NCBI GenBank assembly: GCA_000934665.2 | Contig: JYFJ02001519.1 | Location: 57,154 to 77,153, forward strand | DNA: 20,000 nucleotides | Source: Catajapyx aquilonaris | Lineage: Eukaryota | Direction: 5' to 3' | Shown here: in pieces, positions 2,223 through 18,983 of the stretch | Layout of the letters: every line of letters starts with the position of its first letter | Position numbering within the stretch: position 1 is the stretch's first letter | Program-made: the position numbers and the translations under genes | The notes under the pieces: generated by a model | The model's input: the letters and a program-made list of their open reading frames with translations, nothing else | Told to the model about the DNA's origin: nothing | Databases searched by the model: none

Positions 2223-2888
2223 CTAGTGAAACAAAAACGCGTGCTGATCCAACATATGGTGATCCTCATCATCATGCTCCTTGTTGATCTTCCTCCTGGA
2301 GCCGTGAGGCTCGTCCTGGATTCGCTTATCAATGGCCTCGTCAAATGGTCCATGCCGAGGGCGTTGCTTCAGGCCAGCGATGATGACCCCTGGTCTCCGG
2401 TCGATGATCTCAGGACCGACCTTGTCCGGCATGGAGCCATGAACCTCCACCAGCTCCATGGTTGTGTCTGGCCCCTGCTGACCCTCGCGAATTCGCTGGG
2501 GAGCTCGGTAGTGGAAGTCCCCCATGTCTGGCTGCTTGTCCTTCTGGAATCCAGGTGAGGTATGCACTGTTTTCTCGGACGGTGTTTTGGGTATCGGCAG
2601 AGGAGCGTCCTCGAACTCGTGTATGATCGAGGATGGACCGAAACTCTGGTGTCGGTGGTCAGATTTTGGGTCTTGATCCACTTGCTCTTGGGTGTAGACG
2701 TGGCGTGGAGCCGGGGTGGGGTCAGGAATTGGGGTGGTCACTGCGTTGGAGTCAGTCAGGTCGTCTGTCAGCATTGCATCTGGGGGAAGAAAAATGGTGT
2801 GTAATTATGGCTGTAAATTGACTTGGGCAGATATACCTTGAAAAGTTGCTGCCAGTAGGAGACTGAGGAGCACTACGTAAGGAGACAT
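2223..2888 (-). CDS. Uncharacterised secreted, Cys-free, Pro/Asp/His-rich protein (202 aa, 2 coding exons)
   Basis: Exon 1 is 2888-2837 (MSPYVVLLSLLLAATFQ plus G, signal-peptide-like) with donor CAAG|GTATAT. The 57-nt phase-1 intron 2836-2780 ends in a polypyrimidine tract plus CAG. Exon 2 is 2779-2223, in frame with ORF 2223..2774. TATAAA lies at 2945-2940 and AATAAA at 2190-2185. No family recognised. Confidence 0.8.
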
Positions 2889-5104: not shown

Positions 5105-5110
5105 TTTATT
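5105..5110 (-). promoter_or_regulatory. Polyadenylation signal AATAAA
   Basis: TTTATT on +, about 115 nt downstream of the stop at 5226-5224. Confidence 0.5.
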
Positions 5111-5223: not shown

Positions 5224-7237
5224 CTACTTTGGTTGATTAGATACAAACAATTTCGTCGTGTTGGTAACCTTCTCAGTTTTGGACTGTACATCATACGAGG
5301 TGTCCAAAAAAGCGAACGGCTCCTCTTCTTTGTCGTCCTTAACGAAACCTCCACTGACATCCTCCGAATTGGCTTCCATCAGAGCCTCCGGATCGAAATC
5401 GACCGAATGAAGAAGCTGCTTGACCGTCTTCCCCAGTGAAAACGGCTCTTTGACTGCATCTGCTGCGCTGATGTCGAACTGTGCTGGGAGTCGCACAGCC
5501 TCGACGCTGCCTTCGTACTCCTCTTCACTCAGATACTTCGGGGCGTCCATCTCGAAGTACTCAGGCTCCTTTATGGCTTCCACGCTGAGCAAAAACGACT
5601 CAGGCTTTCTGATTGCTTCTTTGACGAAGGAATCGGGCGCTGTTATCGGCTCAGGTTCCATGTCATTGTCTTCAAATGAATCGGAGTAGGCGTAGGGACC
5701 TCTGGCTGTTTCCATGCTTGGTGCGTACATGACAGCCTCCATGCTGGGCATGTAACCGTGGTCGTCATTTGTGCTGTACATACTGGGAGATCTGGTGTCG
5801 TATGCGTAGTGTGAGTTGAATTCACGGTTTGCTTCCATTGACAGTTCGGCCGAGTGTGAGTCCTTCCTGTTTTCCATGCTGGCATCGAAAGAAGCAGGCT
5901 CTCTTACAGCATCTTGTCTGGATGCTTTGGTTGGTGGGATTCGCAGGTTGTATCCTGGTTTCTCTATGGGCTTTGTCGGAATTCTTAGGTCCATTGTGGG
6001 TGGTTCCCTGACAGATTCTGTCGATTGGTTGTCATCTTCGGCCCAATGTTCCTCTTCCTTCATCTCCTCCATGCTGGGCTCCTCTTCTTTCACCTCCTCC
6101 ATGCTGGGTTCATCCTCACGTAGGTTCGACTGAGGGTACTTGTAGTTGCGTGTTGGAGTCTCCTGCACCGCCTCGATGCTGTGGGAATACCGCCCCATGA
6201 GTCCTTGTTCGTCGCTGTTGTGAGAGGCTGACTCTTCTCTGATGAACTCCATGCTGTAGGCATATGGGTCTTCCAGAAGTTGCTCCATGCTGGGATATGA
6301 TCCGTCGAATTTGGGTTGGTGGTTGTCGTCTTTTCTCGGAGCTGGCAGGCGCATCTCTCGGATTTGGGCCATTTCGAGTCCGTCTGGATACTCTGATCCT
6401 TCCTGTATTTCCTCCAGGGTTGAGGTCGATGGGGCACCTGGAAATCAACGGGAGGATGTGTACATATTTTTCAGTATATAAGCAAACTCCTGTAGATGAA
6501 TTTCTGAATATCCTATAGTGAATTTTTTATGTGTCATTTGGTCACCGACTCGTCAGTAAGATAATCAGTATTAATCAAAGTTTCCACAATGCCACACTGG
6601 TGCACCTTAGATACTTCTAAGCCTTATTGTAAGTTTGTTTGAATCTTCCTGTAACACCCTGTACATTCTACGATTAAAAAAAAACACTTATAGGTCATAT
6701 TTAGAGAAGCTGCATTTCCTGTGCAAATAACTGCTGGAGTTGACATGCGACGCAATAAAAATAATAAATTGAACTTGAGAGTGAGAAGTTGTTGGTGCCA
6801 ATGCATAACTTTTCAGGGCCTTCAAATAAAATGTTTTTCTTTACCATTACTGCATATGGAAAACTACAGTATACAACGAGTTACAAAGTGTTTCCGCTAC
6901 AAATTTGATTGGCATAAAAATGTAAAAGGGGGCAGAAAAACTTATCAAAAAGGTACTGCTGCACTCGATATGGCCCAAGTTCACAGTACAGCAATACAGT
7001 ATAAATGGTGTAGGTAATGTTTAACTTAACCCCAGCAATTAAATTAGAGAGAAGCAAATACTGACAAGTGCATGTGGCCCTCATCCGGCGGGCTTTTCTT
7101 TTTAACATTTTTAAACCTCCCGGCTTGAACTCGATATTTTAAGATAAATAACATTATATCACTGGCGATGCTGACATACCCAAAGCCACGACTCCCAGCA
7201 GAGCGTATCCAAAGATGGCGATGTATATGGACGTCAT
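5224..7237 (-). CDS. Uncharacterised secreted acidic repeat protein rich in S-x-E motifs (423 aa, 2 coding exons)
   Basis: Exon 1 is 7237-7180 (MTSIYIAIFGYALLGVVAL plus G, signal-peptide-like) with donor TTGG|GTATGT. The 742-nt phase-1 intron 7179-6438 ends TTTCCAG. Exon 2 is 6437-5224, reading (G)APSTSTLEEIQEGSEYPDGLE into ORF 5224..6372. TATAAA lies at 7323-7318 and AATAAA at 5110-5105. No Cys; no domain recognised. Confidence 0.85.
6051..6110. repeat. 30-bp coding tandem repeat, 2 copies (EPSMEE[V/M]KEE)
   Basis: cctcttccttcatctcctccatgctgggct versus cctcttctttcacctcctccatgctgggtt, 3 mismatches. Confidence 0.9.
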
Positions 7238-7317
7238 GCCGACACTACGTCCACTGCATGCGGTACTGGAGAAAACAGAACAAAATTTCTGATCTGCCTT
7301 CGCCTTTTCTGGTCGAC

Positions 7318-7323
7318 TTTATA
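7318..7323 (-). promoter_or_regulatory. TATA box of the 423-aa secreted protein gene
   Basis: CTATAAAG on the minus strand, with an Inr-like TCAGA about 30 nt downstream (near 7292-7288) and the ATG at 7237. Confidence 0.65.
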
Positions 7324-9332: not shown

Positions 9333-9404
9333 GGTCCCATGGTGTAATGGTTAGCACTCTGGACTCTGAATCCAGCAATCCCAGTTCAAATCTGGGTGGG
9401 ACCT
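9333..9404 (+). tRNA. tRNA-Gln-CTG: tRNA-Gln (anticodon CTG), intronless, 72 nt
   Basis: GGTCCCATGGTGTAATGGTTAGCACTCTGGACTCTGAATCCAGCAATCCCAGTTCAAATCTGGGTGGGACCT. Acceptor stem GGTCCCA/TGGGACC, anticodon stem CTGGA/TCCAG with CTG at 9366-9368, T stem CCCAG/CTGGG. A and B boxes are intact. It closely resembles the canonical metazoan tRNA-Gln. Confidence 0.97.
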
Positions 9405-9413
9405 CGGATCTCC

Positions 9414-9780: not shown

Positions 9781-9859
<79 letters not shown>

Positions 9860-9882
9860 GTACTACTACTACTACTACTACT
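9781..9882. repeat. (TAC)n trinucleotide microsatellite
   Basis: 26 perfect TAC units, a TG interruption at 9859-9860, then 7 more TAC units. Confidence 0.98.
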
Positions 9883-10326: not shown

Positions 10327-13300
10327 ATGGACCTCAAGCAAAAGCTCAAGTCATTCATCAACAAGCAGGTGATTAAATTTTCAAAGTGAAACAAAAAAAT
10401 TTAAAGTGTTGTCCACCTGAAATTATTCAGACAATTTACCAGAAATAAAACCATATTATGAATGAAAGTGATTTAAAATAATGGGATATATTTCAGGGGC
10501 AGTCGCCAAAGACAAGCCCTTCCAGTCCGCCCCCGTTGGATCCAGTCCTGCCGAACAACTTTGATTCGCAGAAGTCGGTGGAGCGGGACAAGGAAGTGGA
10601 GTTGAGGGACTTCCCCACGGACCCCATGGCGGATCAGGAGGTCCTGGAGAGCATAGACGAGGTCTACTTCCACACCGATCAGTTTGATCCCAGCCAGTAT
10701 GAGCTGAACGTGAGTCATCGACGTCTCGATTGGTGCAGTGGGTAGGATGTTGGCTGATTATGATATGTTTGTAGAGGATACCGGAAGTGCTGGACCAGCA
10801 TGTGATACATGGCAGTCGGCAGAGGATCCTGCGCCAGCTGACGGTTGTGTCCAAGAAAGTGTTCCAGCTCATCCTCCAGAACCAGTCGTCTTGTAATGAA
10901 GAGCTTACCAGGTATGATATGGCCGTTACTTACTGAGCCAGTACTTACAACTAATCTCTACTTAAGGGTGACTGAACTCCAGTCTGACCTTCATGAAACG
11001 CTTCGTGTCTGTCAACGTGGCCGCCAGCAGCTGCGTTTAGCCAAGCGGCAGTTCACCACGACCAGCCTTGGTATTCTGGCGAACTACCGTAAGCGTCAAC
11101 TGGCCATGTCGCTGTTGCACTCCCTGAGCACCATCAAGACTTTACAGCGGACGGACGAACGGCTTCAGGAATTGCTGGAGGAGGAGGATTACCCAGGAGC
11201 CATCCAATTGCTGCTTGAGTGCCAGAAGGCTGCTGCCACCTACAGGCATTTTGCATGCATCTCTGCGCTCAGTCGGAAGCTGCAGGACACGCTTGTTATG
11301 ACTGAGGAGCAGCTGGACGTAGCCTTAGCCAGGACATGCGCCAGATTTGATCCCAAGAGCTATCGGAAGCTACACACAGCATATCGGTATGGGATTGAGA
11401 AACAAATTAAGTAAATTAAGGAGGATAATTGCATTTTGTTGTTTTTTTGTGTCAGGCTTCTGGGTAAGACGCAGACTGCAATGGACCAGCTACACATGCA
11501 CTTTACATCGGCCATACACAACACAGCGTTTACCATTGTGCATGGATATGTTGAATTGTGTGCATCTGCTGCACCGAATCCGGATTCACCTTCTGAGACA
11601 AGCTCACAGAAGAAGCAGTACTCCGATTTGTGTAAGGTGTGTATCATTTATTGGGGCTCTTTTTATTGTCTTGCGCTAGCAGTAGTTTATCATCCAAAAA
11701 TTTTCTCAACCCACATTTCAGATGGTGACCTCGGAGAGCTTCCTCCCTTGCCTAATTGATCTGTGCAAGTCTCTGTGGGAGATAATGAACAGTTATCACA
11801 AAATGATGCGGTGGCACTCACAGTTAGACGATGACATGGCGTCTTCCATGGACGGCCCTGAGTCTGATTTCACTAGGAAGTACGTCAGGCAAAAGCTTGA
11901 GCATGGACGGTCCAGAGTGTGGCAGGATGTGCAGACCAAAGTGCGCACCTACCTGCTTGCTTCGGACCTGTCGCACTTCAAGTTCGAGGATTTCTTGGCA
12001 GTATTGGAGGCAACTAGGCGACTTATGGATGTGGGGCGTGATTTTTGCGGGGGACCAGCCGAGTCACTGCAGGAGTCACTCAAGCGTCAGAGTGCAAGTT
12101 ACTTCCGGAGCTACCATCGCAACTCATTAGACCAGCTTCGTGTGTTTCTGGAAAATGAGGCCTGGGAGATATGCCCATTGAAGGTCATATTTTAATGCCA
12201 TTTATATAATGTGTGTAGGTCTAGCAACCATATTATTGGGACTGCATTTACATGTGATCGAGCAATTTGATCAGCGATGTGCAGCGAAGAGCATCGCTGG
12301 GCAATGAAATAAATTGTTGGGGTGAAAGTAACAATCGTGTGTCGCTCCCGCTGAGCTGAGCTGAGCAAATTGCTTGCATGTAAACGTGGTCGTAACGTGT
12401 ATTTTCTCACTTTTTTCAGGCTGGCTTCAACATAATGCAGCTCCACGAGATGCGATTATTGGGTGATGCACCAGGTGATACGGTCGTGAACTCGCCAAAT
12501 GCATTCAACACCTTTGCTGACGAAGGCACACCTTTTGACACCGCATTGGACGACACGCAAGAGGAGGACATACTTGCTCCAGGGGCTGACACAATGTCCA
12601 GTGATAGTGATGAGGACGTACCAGATGAGCTCAAATGTGACTATGTCGATGAACGCACTGGTGAACCACCAAAGCAACGCCGCCGCCATCACCTTCCAGA
12701 CGGCCCTATACTCACCAACACTGCCCTGTTTGTCCTACGCTTGTGTGGGAAGTACCTCCAAATGATGCGCCTTCTGCAGCCAGTTGCCTCAGACGTGCTT
12801 GCCTCTTTGTCGCAACTGTTTGACTATTACCTCTATGCTGTTGCGACCTTTTTTTCCCCAAGTGGACAGATGCGACCCCGTGTACTGGCCCGCATTCAGG
12901 AGTGGATGTCTGATACGGTATCGCCACCGTGTGTATCTCCTGCTGTTGATTTAACAACTCCTGAGCGACTCTACGGTTTGAAGGAACGTACCATTGGTGT
13001 TGAGTCGCTTGTGTTTATTGCAACTCAGTTCGGAGCAGTTCGTCCATATATTGAGTCAACTGTGCCAACTACGGCCAGGGCAATGGTGCAGCAGTTCATG
13101 GCTAGTGTGGGTGTTGCGGAAGACATGCGGAAGCCAGTGTACCAAGCCGTGGCAACCAGGGCAGTGGACTTTGACAATGTGATGCAAATGATGAGCAAAG
13201 TCAACTGGGATGTCAGGGAGGTTGTAAGTCAGCATAGCACCTATGTTGATGTATTACTCAGGGTGAGTATTTGTTCCCAAATATTTAACGATGCACCCGT

Positions 13301-16048
13301 AATATTTGAGGACTTAAAACACTAACTGACAATTCATTTTGATCACTCCATATACGGTCACATGAATAACTTAATGCTACGTATGTTCACATTAAAATGT
13401 TTTATTGACCCTGAACGACAAACAGACTAATCACCGCTCACTTTTCTCATTAAAAGCCTCGTCTGCTCTAGGTAGAAATATAGCGTCATTGTCTGGCTGA
13501 TCAGGTGCATGATGAATGGGCTCAACGTCTGTCTCTATGCTAGCTTCGGGGACAATTGCCCTTGCCTCGTGCTTGGGCAGCAACCCCTCTCTGGCCCTGA
13601 AGAGCGAGGCTGATGCCTTTGCCTCCAAGTCTTTCCTTTTTGGCGGACATTGGTCAAAGTCAGTTCGCTGCAGGTTGGCGACGTTAATGCCACTCATGTT
13701 GAAAGTAGTTATGACGCTGGCTACAAGCTCTTCGTCCAGGGAGGTGTTGCGGGTCAGGATCATAGGAATGGACATGCGTCCGTAGAAGATCTCCTTGCAC
13801 GTGTATGCCACTGCGTACGTGTTGTAGTCAGTTTTGGGGATAGCAACTGAAGCTGGACCTAGTAGGCCTGAAAAGAGCAGAAATTGTGATTAGCACTGTT
13901 CTCTAATTTCTTGAATGCATTTTATTTTTGGTAGCAAAGTTTCAGTGCATTATAATTCATCGTAGCTCAAATCTTTCTGGACAGTTTTACTGATTAGAGG
14001 CACTTAATAGTGTAATGCGCTTCAAAAGAAGTCATCCATTTCCATCTGCGTAACACTTGCATTGTATCAGCAGGATGTAAGCAAAGAGAGCCAAGTGTAA
14101 CACTGCATTGCAAAAACACTTCTATTATTTGTGAACGTGAGTTCCTTGCATGTAACGCTGAAATGGGCCCTTTGTAAGCACAAAGCCAGTGTGAAACGCT
14201 TGGAGGTATGGGACTTAGAAATGCTTGTTATACAATATTTAATAGCTATTGCCATGAAATTCATGAAGGTCATGTTTAAATTGGCCAACTGTTTACAGTC
14301 GCATGCATTTTTTGCTGCTGTTGAGTATAGTCATAAGGGGAGTACCTAGTAGGGGCGGAAGAGAGAGCCGCATGAACCCAGAAAGGTACGAATCCATTTT
14401 TGCTTGGAGCTCGTACAGAAATGCAGCTGGAAATCCAAATTCGGGGATCTCTGGAAGGGGCCTCCGCACTTCAATGTCCACTTCACGCTCGTTAAACTCA
14501 AGCCGCACGGACATGCAAGCAGGTGTACCTTCAGGACCCATGAAAACGTGCCACTTTCCAGACATCTAGAAGTAAATGGAAACAAAGTCGTAAATATGCA
14601 CTACAGCTCTTTTGATGATAAGGAATCCTTACCTTGCTTGTGTCAAAGTCCGTCATTGGCGGCACGTTACTACACTGACCCTTGTCAAAGATGTAAGCTG
14701 ATGCTGAAGACATGTATACCATTGTCACCACAAATATCACACCCAACATTGTCACAAAAGGAGGTCAACTGCGATCCACACTCACATCCACTGCTTGCTA
14801 AAATGACGTGACTGGACAACGGATGGCCTTTTTCCTGCCCTTTCACTCTCAAAAAATTATAATTTGTCATGTAGCGACACCTGGCTTCCATTTTTTGGGA
14901 GAGGAAACACAAATTAAATGCAATCATTTGCTGGTGACAGGGTTGTAACATCCTGTTCTTTGTCGCGTGACGCTGCCCCTCCGACGTATCCAACCTTTTG
15001 TTGCCGAGATTTGGGCGGGACACCTTTTTTGTTAGGGATCAATGAACTTCCTCTTTGTTACGCAACATTGTTGACACTACAAAATTATATTGATAGCTCC
15101 ATGTAATTGATTATGTTGCAACAAGGCTTTTATGTGGGTGACCCCTTTCTAGCCACGTACAGTATATAAACCAGGTGAAAGTTGTTGCTTCACTGTGCTA
15201 TTTTTTGAAGTACATTCCTTTTAACCGGGGCGATTAATAGCTGGAATGAATAGTGTGAGGAAAGGATCCTTTGCTTTGTTTTGTACGTCACCGTGTTAAT
15301 TAGCACTGGTCATTATGAAGTAGGGTTTGAAGTCGAAATTAGAGTGAATATGGTATGAATGGGCATCGTAAGCTGTAATTTTCACGCCAGCAATATTGTT
15401 AGTTCCGCCTGTCTTGGATAACTGTTCATAATCATGTCCTTTTATTACCTAGCATTTGCATTGAAATGTTGTGTCATCTTGCCGGCAGGATCTTCAGGTT
15501 TTCACAATGCGCCTGGAGGAGGTGTCGAGACGCACTCCGATCCCCAAGGAAGCGTACACGGTCCTGTGGAACCACGTGATCCGCTTCACCAACCATGTGT
15601 TGGTGGAAGGGTTTGCCAGCACCAAGAAGTGCTCGCAGGGCGGACGTGCTCTCATGCAGCTGGACTTCATCCAGTTTGTTTCCAAGCTGGAGAAAATAAC
15701 CGAAGTGCGCCCAATTCCAGAGAGGGAGTTTGTGGAGAATTTCATCAAGGCCTACTACATTCCAGAGAACAATATGGAAGACTGGATCAAGGAGCACACG
15801 GTACTCGAGTTTTTCATTAGACAAACTTGTGTGGCTGACTGCATTTGGGTTTTGCAACCCTCAAAAATTATCCAGAAGGAGAATTGGTGCCATTAGTTAA
15901 TATCCATTTAATTAAGTTAATTTCATTTTTGCAGGAGTACAGCACAAAGCATCTGGGAGCGTTGGTGACATGCGCACATCAGAACAACAAGAAGGCTAGG
16001 CAGAGGTTGTTTGCAGTGATCGAGGAAGTAGAACGGACTAGGCGATAG
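10327..16048 (+). CDS. VPS50: Syndetin / vacuolar protein sorting 50 (EARP complex subunit, CCDC132), 907 aa, 9 coding exons
   Basis: Exons 10327-10368, 10497-10709, 10775-10911, 10967-11386, 11456-11636, 11722-12183, 12420-13262, 15489-15800 and 15935-16048. All introns are GT-AG and the phases join to 2724 nt. Recognised VPS50 segments: [88 protein letters not shown]. Confidence 0.95.
13401..13406 (-). promoter_or_regulatory. Polyadenylation signal of the nested lipocalin
   Basis: TTTATT on +, about 25 nt downstream of the TGA at 13433-13431. Confidence 0.65.
13431..14749 (-). CDS. Secreted lipocalin, apolipoprotein D-like (257 aa, 3 coding exons), nested antisense in VPS50 intron 7
   Basis: Exon 14749-14633 gives the signal peptide [18 protein letters not shown] and [16 protein letters not shown], exon 14565-14346 starts MSGKWHVF, and exon 13867-13431 carries [16 protein letters not shown] and TDFDQC. 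All three lipocalin conserved regions are present (FD..K..GxW, TDY..YA..Y.C, ILxR), along with four Cys. Introns are GT-AG, phase 0 then phase 1. AATAAA lies at 13406-13401. Confidence 0.9.
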
Positions 16049-16587
16049 TTTTTCTTCCCACTCAAAGCCACACGTAACCGTTTCCTGTTACTGGTTAACA
16101 TTCCTGGTTTACTGGCAACCATATCTCGCATCCATGGCTAGGGTGCATGGAGATACAGTGTACTCTCCCATTAACGAACCGCAAGGTAATGAAAATGATT
16201 TTGTGACCATCATAACCCATACTGAAATGTTGCAATTACTATCCTGCAATGAAAAATATCGAACTTGACACATCAGGGCTCAATTGTACGATAAGACAAC
16301 ATTCATTACACAATTTTTTCCCGGACCTAGGAGTAATGAGTATCATATGCTGTACATCCAATAACTGATGCTGTACTCTTTTCATATACTCCTATGCCCC
16401 GTATAATGAACAAATATTTTCTTCCCTTGAGATTCGATATAAAGAGAGTACACTGTACTTCAGATGTTCAGGGTGACATTTTCCAAATCTTCGGCCAGTC
16501 TACTGGTCACTGAATAATGCAACACGTTCTGCCCTTTCTAGTTCACTTCTTTAATAATTGGTACGTAAAGCACTACAGAGTCCACTA

Positions 16588-18983
16588 TTAATGCGCTAAA
16601 TTGGTTTCTGCACTAGATGATGTAGGCACATAAGCGGCTGCATCCTTCTTGGACCTGTATTTGAGGGACTTGGACTCAATCTTCTCCTGGTCACTCTGCC
16701 AATCCACCTAGGTTGGGAGGGGAAATCATTTTTAAAAATTAGCAAGAGTAATAATAATAATAATTACAGAGTATGAAATTAAATGAGATTATTTCAGTAT
16801 GTAATTGAAATTTTTTATCCCTCATGACCCTCTTAGGCAAGAGTACCTTCTGTTGATGCTGCTGCACTGCGTCCATGACTCGGTCCATAACCATCTTCTC
16901 TGTGAGCACTCCATCCTCAGACGCATACGCTGCTGCCTGCCATGCGACTCCTAGCTTCGCAATCTCTCGTCCAGACATCCCTGCCGAGACTCGCGCTATC
17001 TCCGTGCACAGCTTGCTGTAGTCAAACTGCGCCACCTTGAGCCTGCGCTTTCCTTCTGCTGCAGGTTGAAGGACATACTTTTCGAAATACAGCCTGACCA
17101 GACGCTCACGTTCGTCCAGGCCAGGAAGGGTGAACTCCACCATCTCGTCGAGGCGGTCATTGACAGCCCAGTCAAACTGCTCGGGTGTGTTGGAAGCCAG
17201 GACCAGCATGAACTTGTTGGACTGTTCACCAGTACGGTACAGAAATGCATTTAGGGTGGAACGAAGATCTTCGCTTATTAACTCGGAACTACGTTTACGT
17301 AGAAAGGCATCTGCTTCGTCAACAAAAAGGAGTAGACCTCTGCGGGAAGTGGAAGCCCAGTCAAATACTTTGTGCATGGCTGTGACCCCATCACGACCCA
17401 TGGGTGCCACATCACCACCAGTCATTATGGCATAGTCCATACCACAGTGAGTCGCTAGTTTCTGGAATAAACCAAAGATACGATTAGAAAGCAACTCTGA
17501 TGTGGACACTTGGACAAACATCCAACAACTGATGTGTACCTTTGCAAAGAGCGTCTTGCCAGTTCCAGGTGGCCCATGCATGAGAATGTTCCGATACATC
17601 CCACGGTTGCGCTTGGTGTTCCTGGTAGTGATGGCCACATCCCTGAGCCTCTCCTCCAGCTTGGGCTCCAACACAACGCCTGACAGGGCATCAGTTGCTT
17701 TGGACCTGAGCCGGCCAATGACATGCACCGGGTGCTTGGTTGCCTCCAGAACTGAGAACCTCGACGTCTCACGCACTAATGACGGCTTCCCCAGTCGAGA
17801 CCCTACATATTTGACTGCAACTCCGGTCGCCCCTTTCGCAGTGTAGATCCCAAGGGCCAGGAGGGAGATGCCAGCTGCAGCACGAACAACTTCATCCCAG
17901 TTGTTCAGGAACGCGTGGAATCCAGTGCCCACCACTGATCCCATGGTCCTGCACACAAATGATGGAAATTTACCTCACTGCTTATATCCTGTCAAATATG
18001 GTAATTACTTTCAGATGATCATGCAGAGATTAACTACTTGCATAATGAGATATGCACCTTGGCCTGTAATTATGAGTCAGCTTTAATGTAAGAATAACTG
18101 CATAATCACAGTACCATCTCTTATCAGGTGTGTGTTGGTACAGAGAGTGGGCAAACTCTTACAGTACATTTTGCAACGAATTTTGGCACCTCGTACGCTG
18201 TCTTTTACAAAAGTACAGCAATGCCCCAGAAGCCTGCCTGACCCCTCAGACGTACTGTATGGACTGCAGCACCGTATCCCTATTCTCGGTGGCTCTGAGC
18301 TTGATCTGCTCCAGGTGGATGTCCCTGTTCTCCCGGTCAGCCTGTGCCCTGGCCTTGGCCTCTGCCTGGACCCGCTTCATGTCGTTCTTCATCCTGAGCT
18401 CCATCTCGTGCTCCAGCGTGGCTTTCCTCATGGCCTCCTGCTTCGCCACACTCTCCTCCTGTCTCCGCAGGTTCTCCTCATTCATCCGCTGCTGCTGACC
18501 CAACTGGTCATCGTACCGCTGACGAGACAAGTGGTCCTCGAACTTGGCCCGCTGCTGGTGCTGCCTGTAATGTACCGATTACAATCCGTACGCATGTGTG
18601 TATACTGCAACGTGCCTGGTCTCCTCGGCTATGTTCTTCCTCCTCTCCTCGGCCTCCACCTTCTTCTGCTCGATCCTGGCGTGCTCAATTGCGGCCTCGT
18701 ACTCCTTCATCTTGGAAGCGTAGTCATGCTGCTTGCTGATCTCCTGCTGCTTGGACAGCTCCAGCGCCTCCTTAGCAAAGTGGGATCTCTCCAGATCCTT
18801 GGCAGCCTGTGCCGCTCTCTCCAGTGCGGAGGAGTCAAACCTGTAGGCTTCCATCATGCCGCCGCCACCCCCGGTGTCCTTCCCACCGCCTCCCATCCCT
18901 GGTGGCGGCTTGGGCTTCTCCGGCACCCCTGGAGGCAGGCCCTCGTCCTGGGGCGGCTTGCGACCACCGAAGATCCACGACAT
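16588..18983 (-). CDS. ATAD3: ATPase family AAA domain-containing protein 3 (mitochondrial; belphegor homolog), 606 aa, 5 coding exons
   Basis: Exons 18983-18616, 18564-18256, 17948-17540, 17461-16847 and 16707-16588 (1821 nt). Start [18 protein letters not shown], coiled coil, hydrophobic segment [29 protein letters not shown], Walker [23 protein letters not shown] and Walker [16 protein letters not shown] are all characteristic of ATAD3. Confidence 0.96.

Follow-up and report, generated by a model that had tools for sequence, protein, structure and literature searches.

A predicted secreted, acidic repeat protein rich in S-x-E motifs, a candidate Fam20C-type substrate, in Catajapyx aquilonaris

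The locus very likely carries an intact two-exon gene

We analysed a window of 20,000 nucleotides from Catajapyx aquilonaris (assembly GCA_000934665.2, contig JYFJ02001519.1, positions 57,154-77,153 of the forward strand), and coordinates below refer to this window unless another contig is named. The gene under study has an orphan gene, a tRNA-Gln gene, VPS50 and ATAD3A as neighbours (Table 1). Its exon-2 frame contains no stop codon, compared with 9-16 stops in the other five frames, and we roughly estimate the chance of a 406-codon open frame at 1e-8 to 1e-11 per start. GC content is about 51% in exon 2 and 36% in the intron. The intron extends from a GT donor at 7179 to a CAG acceptor, preceded by a pyrimidine tract, whose last base is 6438; of the two acceptor candidates found, this is the best. 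The joined GT-AG frame exactly reproduces the short signal-peptide exon, the 7180/6437 junction and the 423-residue product proposed in an earlier note on this DNA. An in-frame stop is present 5' of the main ATG. The four-codon upstream ORF sits directly 3' of a second pyrimidine tract with a CAG that ends at 7266, a possible alternative acceptor upstream of the main ATG. In a single test of synonymous codon bias, the coding frame scored 0.018 and the other five frames -0.168 to 0.048, a result that does not set the coding frame apart. An intact gene with a 423-residue product and a genuine excess of S-x-E motifs is very likely on the sequence, from which we also infer transcription and splicing. 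Nesting of the gene within VPS50 was ruled out, as the apparent VPS50 start near 10328 lies beyond it.

Table 1. Coordinates of the gene, its predicted elements, its neighbours and the two PF06702 kinase loci of the host genome.
Feature	Position	Strand	Remarks
TATAAA box	7318..7323	-	86 nt 5' of ATG; putative promoter element
Upstream ORF	7245..7259	-	4 codons, in presumed 5' UTR; seen in sequence
Exon 1, coding part	7180..7237	-	58 nt; 19 predicted signal-peptide codons plus one base; ATG at 7237
Intron	6438..7179	-	742 nt, phase 1, GT-AG; splicing predicted from sequence
Exon 2	5224..6437	-	acidic, Cys-free, predicted-disordered body; carries 16 S-x-E and 12 [RK]-x-P; ends TAG
S-x-E serine codons	5508..6291	-	span of all 16
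30-bp tandem duplication	6050..6108	-	recent; 2.0 copies, 93% matches; SME at residues 131 and 141
Clearest run of 13-14-residue unit	5428..5625	-	residues 291-356
AATAAA polyadenylation signal	5105..5110	-	about 114 nt past stop; putative
Second two-exon orphan	2223-2888	-	
tRNA-Gln(CTG)	9333-9405	+	followed by T run
(TAC)34 microsatellite	9781-9882		
VPS50/syndetin	about 10328-16100	+	
Lipocalin-like gene	13431-14764	-	
ATAD3A	16590-18983	-	
Fam20C-like kinase gene	G000:C442 54045-73706	+	PF06702; one exon compared
Fam20B-like kinase gene	G000:C45 94470-95889	-	PF06702; one exon compared

The second orphan has the same layout as the gene under study: a signal-peptide exon (2888-2837), a phase-1 intron and a second exon (2779-2223), flanked by TATAAA at 2945 and AATAAA at 2190. 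Its Cys-free, Pro/Asp/His-rich product of 202 residues contains no S-x-E motif and several basic pairs near the C-terminus, and no Pfam family, paralogue or homologue was found for it. VPS50 and ATAD3A converge tail-to-tail. The lipocalin-like gene lies antisense inside a VPS50 intron, probably comprises three exons and carries a long C-terminal extension; its weak match to PF00061 (E 3e-4) falls just under the cut-off. The 30 kb upstream contain no long gene-like frames apart from a transposon-like remnant (L002). It consists of two overlapping short frames on the minus strand, roughly 3.0-3.4 kb before window position 1, that resemble a decayed DNA-transposon fragment.

The product is acidic, Cys-free and predicted to be secreted and disordered

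The 423-residue product contains no Cys and is rich in Glu (13.9%), Ser (10.4%), Pro (8.0%) and Asp (7.1%), in agreement with the roughly 400 Cys-free, Glu/Asp/Ser/Pro-rich residues described earlier. The mature chain has a pI of 4.39 and contains 89 Asp and Glu compared with 40 Lys and Arg residues. Residues 1-20 are hydrophobic and fit a signal peptide by eye and by hydropathy, from which we infer secretion and cleavage after Gly20, giving a predicted mature N-terminus of Ala-Pro. In 92% of 51-residue windows the FoldIndex value falls below zero. AlphaFold2 run without an alignment returned a pLDDT of 44.6 and a pTM of 0.17, with 293 of 403 residues below 50 and only a weak C-terminal hairpin with a pLDDT near 60; these model scores are weakly compatible with disorder. 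The 423-residue sequence contains no clusters of adjacent serines, no Gly-basic amidation signals were seen in it, and three dibasic sites are present, one of them followed by Pro.

S-x-E motifs with a hydrophobic central residue are in excess

All 16 S-x-E motifs counted by eye in the earlier note were confirmed (eight SME, two SVE and one each of SIE, STE, SAE, SDE, SFE and SEE), the first bases of their serine codons lying at 6291, 6255, 6216, 6180, 6105, 6075, 6024, 5880, 5853, 5841, 5745, 5718, 5679, 5586, 5529 and 5508. The excess over composition-shuffled sequence likewise held: 6.32 motifs are expected, and 16 were reached in 2 of 20,000 shuffles. Local shuffles reached this count in 2 of 20,000 (20 residues) and 1 of 20,000 (40 residues). 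SME alone occurs 8 times where 0.3 are expected (0/20,000), and removal of one copy of the recent tandem duplication leaves 15 S-x-E motifs compared with 5.78 expected (0/5,000). No enrichment was found for T-x-E (1 vs 2.61 expected) or S-x-D (4 vs about 3.2 expected, by subtraction), nor for S-x-x-E, SE or ES over shuffles. All of the excess comes from S-[MIVLF]-E (12 vs 1.28 expected), other residues at x giving 4 motifs vs 4.98. Eight of nine S-M dipeptides are followed by E, and [TDN]-hydrophobic-E occurs twice compared with 1.85 expected.

When 2000 gapped residue pairs were ranked, S-x-E came fourth behind R-x-P, SM and ME, and in a family-wise test 156 of 1000 shuffles contained some gapped pair scoring at least as high as S-x-E. 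The case for S-x-E is weakened by this result if the motif is taken as an unprompted find, and to a lesser degree if it was a hypothesis set in advance. We also ranked the gene among 136 stop-free frames of at least 150 residues from 450 kb of the host genome, window included. It ranks first (S-x-E z 4.5, density 3.94 per 100 residues; next 2.33), a position to be read with the caveat that the gene was picked for S-x-E and that the controls are mostly non-secreted or non-coding. Eight frames, this gene included, have an S-x-E expectation of at least 2, and the other seven have z values of at most 0.4. The frame ranking second, probably off-frame, overlaps a 995-residue open frame with Gly/Pro-rich silk-like repeats, which runs from about 9117 on the minus strand of L043 (G000:C485:10001-20000).

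The motifs head a degenerate 13-residue repeat

Anchoring on the motifs showed that S-x-E heads a degenerate unit of about 13 residues, S-hydrophobic-E-A-hydrophobic-[RK]-x-P-x-x-[FY]. Self-comparison of the protein yielded 36 alike 10-residue window pairs, compared with 4.6 (maximum 12) in 200 shuffles, at offsets that include 10-13 residues. The second half of the unit is also enriched: [RK]-x-P occurs 12 times (3.35 expected), R-x-P 9 times (1.51 expected, 0/20,000), [VILM][RK]-x-P 9 times (0.56 expected) and [VIL][RK]-x-P-x-x-F 4 times (0.02 expected). The combined pattern S-x-E-x-x-[RK]-x-P is found 4 times where 0.05 are expected; only 4 of the 12 [RK]-x-P units have S-x-E five residues upstream. 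AGC encodes the serine in 10 of 12 S-hydrophobic-E motifs, compared with 3 of the 31 remaining serines of the mature chain (Fisher p 8e-6) and 11 of 77 serines in housekeeping exons; the remaining two motifs use TCA. This codon skew argues for a common ancestral unit for most S-hydrophobic-E motifs. As the motifs are ends of a duplicated unit, the 16 do not constitute 16 independent pieces of evidence. The use of TCA and the varying Glu codon (7 GAG and 3 GAA in the ten AGC motifs) hint at retention of S-hydrophobic-E at the protein level. The earlier case for S-x-E stands as regards a Ser- and Glu-specific excess, but it missed the origin of the motifs in a repeat, in which R-x-P is the strongest signal.

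S-hydrophobic-E could be a by-product, just one end of a unit whose function lies elsewhere, with any phosphorylation incidental; the unit might act as a multivalent short linear motif built around hydrophobic-R-x-P-x-x-F, or it might form short helices. The top rank of R-x-P among gapped pairs, the excess of its two extended forms, the common AGC codon and the lack of enrichment of non-hydrophobic S-x-E all favour such a reading. A helix N-cap, however, would allow substitution by Thr, Asp or Asn and give an excess of S-x-x-E. The motif serine is never replaced by these residues and no S-x-x-E excess is present, which disfavours a helix-capping origin of S-x-E. The E that follows nearly every S-M dipeptide and the two motifs with the other Ser codon family also count against an incidental motif, and we consider this explanation fairly unlikely.

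Searches returned no relatives and the host is tentatively a wingless hexapod

Exon 2 matches no Pfam family at E 0.1, the cuticular R&R chitin-binding domain included. A 5.8-billion word search, in which 2721 candidates with lengths of 221-706 only were scored, gave none at E 1, and phmmer against 1.84 billion representatives gave no match at E 0.001. The ESM Atlas, queried with the full protein and with residues 170-350, returned no usable match, which shows neither absence nor novelty. None of 110 pattern matches in JGI metagenomes was confirmed. Two weak PDB matches (E 0.19 and 0.63), both to one PPIL6 protein, were taken as chance. The earlier note recognised no homologue, and the Pfam, word and phmmer searches bear this out. 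Within the host genome the protein matches itself alone among the 5 and 2 candidates scored as paralogues. A paired AGC-[M/V/I]-E DNA pattern gives 17 matches there compared with 33 in a reversed control; three of the 17 lie inside the gene itself and the other 14 encode no similar protein. Literature searches, which covered few subscription journals, listed no account of a repeat protein like this one and little on Fam20C substrates in hexapods.

The neighbouring ATAD3A, queried with one in-frame intron included, reaches a best identity of about 75-76% among the 120 matches listed (593 passed; 8000 candidates scored). As even this gene has no match above about 76% among those listed, the missing homologues are weak evidence of novelty and reflect poor sampling of the host lineage, whose close kin seem to be missing. 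In a quick ATAD3A tree of 50 rows (49 of the 120 listed homologues and the window row), the host sequence is supported at SH-aLRT 98 in a group with Daphnia and winged insects and falls outside the group of named winged insects (SH-aLRT 92), on a long branch that makes the placement unsure. The host genome contains one OBP-type exon match (3 candidates) and a single odorant-receptor match (15 candidates) that fits a gustatory receptor better (E 8e-19 vs 2e-7). Given the distribution of these families across lineages, the presence of an OBP-type exon together with a gustatory-like sole odorant-receptor match tentatively suggests a wingless hexapod. In such a host a calcified shell is unlikely and mineral granules could be present.

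A Fam20C-like kinase is encoded by the host and a condensing phosphoprotein is proposed

The PF06702 profile identifies two host loci with three exons each (Table 1). For the exon compared from the C442 locus, which contains DRHHYE, the best matches are Fam20C from zebrafish (E 2e-36) and from human (5e-36), ahead of xylosylkinase (2e-27), and the best match of the C45 exon is a Fam20B-type xylosylkinase. By these matches the host encodes a Fam20C-like kinase. Fam20C is reported to need Glu at +2 and to prefer Ser (PMC12650399), in keeping with the Fam20C consensus invoked by the earlier note; as to a preference for hydrophobic x, the term 'hydrophobic' occurs 0 times in the available text of that paper. 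The fly orthologue of Fam20C, CG31145, is reported to be Golgi-localised, to have casein kinase activity (given there as 'not shown') and to be expressed in salivary gland and gut (PMC3416761). The motif profile of the 423-residue protein fits Fam20C since S-x-E is enriched and T-x-E, S-x-D and S-x-x-E are not.

As the best explanation, with about an even chance, we propose a disordered polyanion that Fam20C phosphorylates and that condenses with Ca2+/Mg2+ as part of a secretion or extracellular matrix. Counting for it are the S-x-E excess itself, its specificity with Ser over Thr, the host kinase, the fly kinase and the SxE phosphosites of honeybee royal jelly, the FoldIndex profile, the codon variation within the motifs and the top rank among control frames. 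The hydrophobic-x restriction, the higher rank of R-x-P, the shared AGC ancestry, the family-wise result, the small share of [RK]-x-P units with an upstream S-x-E, the lack of any orthologue in which conservation would be visible and the codon-bias scores count against it. The two-exon gene would be expressed and the acidic repeat protein exported, its signal peptide being cut after Gly20. Many of the 16 S-x-E serines would be phosphorylated by the Fam20C-like Golgi kinase, which could lower the net charge of the mature chain from -49 to -81 at the extreme. The phosphorylated polyanion would be bridged by Ca2+/Mg2+, and hydrophobic and aromatic elements of the repeat unit (hydrophobic-R-x-P-x-x-F, Y-A-Y) would serve as stickers. 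The protein would then condense in secretory granules and set after release, for example in an egg coat, spermatophore, glue or cuticle-associated layer, and mineral formation would not be needed.

Comparison with known phosphoproteins argues against SCPP descent

Granins (chromogranin/secretogranin) are acidic disordered secretory proteins of about 400 residues that condense with Ca2+. The 423-residue protein differs from them in having no Pfam match, few dibasic sites and no homology. Like vertebrate SCPP proteins, which include caseins and the SIBLINGs osteopontin and DMP1, the protein combines a predicted signal peptide on a short exon, judged by hydropathy, with an acidic, predicted-disordered body and many S-x-E sites of Fam20C type (PMC7807025, PMC5118209). 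It differs in its host, an arthropod, in its flanks, which are an orphan gene and tRNA-Gln/VPS50 rather than a SPARCL1 cluster, in its dispersed S-hydrophobic-E motifs rather than serine clusters, and in that no sequence similarity was detected. Its 58-nt first coding exon leads to a phase-1 intron, whereas SCPP introns are described as phase 0 in the available parts of two papers, in 'all' genes (PMC7807025) or in 'most SCPP genes' (PMC5118209), and intron phase served to exclude Odaph from SCPP (PMC7807025). SCPP identity was rejected on this intron, and SCPP by descent on a host that ATAD3A places among pancrustaceans and a locus that has no SPARCL1 context. The SCPP/casein membership suggested by the earlier note is contradicted by the intron phase, the arthropod host and the lack of adjacent-serine clusters. 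A convergent analogue of casein or osteopontin in a wingless hexapod, its 13-residue unit multiplied for the Fam20C site and the protein acting as a calcium(-phosphate) carrier or setting agent, is unlikely; its site may be an egg coat, spermatophore, glue or mineral granules.

Royal-jelly proteins are folded, unlike the predicted-disordered protein described here, and we know of no 13-residue unit in them or in Sabellaria cement proteins. The likeness lies in SxE, a motif that the phosphosites of royal jelly, an insect secretion, yielded in the honeybee (PMC6747239). For the cement of the polychaete Sabellaria, Fam20C has been proposed to mature the cement proteins, which differ in carrying polyphosphoserine (PMC12621633).

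The protein could also be a mineral-matrix phosphoprotein of the casein/osteopontin or Orchestin kind, whose task would be to keep amorphous calcium carbonate or phosphate stable in cuticle, shell, eggs or storage granules. Its acidic, predicted-disordered and S-x-E-rich chain would suit this role, as would the precedent of the phosphorylated Ca-binding crustacean matrix proteins Orchestin and CAP-1, Ser phosphorylation being reported to matter to Ca binding by Orchestin (PMC3335408), and the link of Fam20C to oyster shell (PMC5824888). Orchestin, CAP-1 and crustocalcin are likewise pancrustacean, secreted and acidic, secretion of the 423-residue protein being predicted, but no similarity to them was detected. 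Against a mineral matrix stand the lack of a chitin-binding or other Pfam domain and of adjacent-serine clusters, the hexapod-like host and the fly, in which Fam20C expression is apparently not linked to biomineralisation in the available text (PMC3416761). We regard this role as distinctly unlikely. The mineralisation role put forward in the earlier note is not supported, and shell calcification is doubtful in a host that is tentatively a wingless hexapod.

Cutting after a basic residue followed by trimming of x-Pro dipeptides is characteristic of apidaecin-type processing. A multi-peptide precursor cut after the Arg or Lys of [RK]-x-P, with x-Pro trimmed and acidic peptides released, would be in line with the excess of [RK]-x-P and R-x-P and with the predicted Ala-Pro N-terminus. 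The hypothetical fragments, however, range from 8 to 74 residues and share no common product, dibasic sites are few and amidation signals were not seen. We hold such a precursor to be improbable. An inactive gene or wrong model, either unexpressed or with an extra upstream exon that turns the hydrophobic stretch into an anchor, would fit the codon-bias scores and the CAG at 7266 but is very improbable in view of the long open frame, the GC difference, the canonical splice sites that join the signal peptide in frame, the TATA box and poly(A) signal, and the identical layout of the neighbouring 2223-2888 gene.

Implications

The earlier picture of a predicted secreted, acidic, disordered orphan with an S-x-E excess survives, and kinship with SCPP proteins or caseins and a mineralisation role do not. 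The protein is probably a cation-binding component of a secretion or outer matrix. As an ordinary kind of lineage-specific gene product it is plausible and would not surprise a specialist, secretory S-x-E phosphorylation being already known in bees from the available text on royal jelly (PMC6747239). If true, the proposed reading would be a case of convergence on a casein-like design. If the protein is phosphorylated as read here, it would be a handy Fam20C test substrate from a hexapod, with 16 candidate sites set within a repeat.
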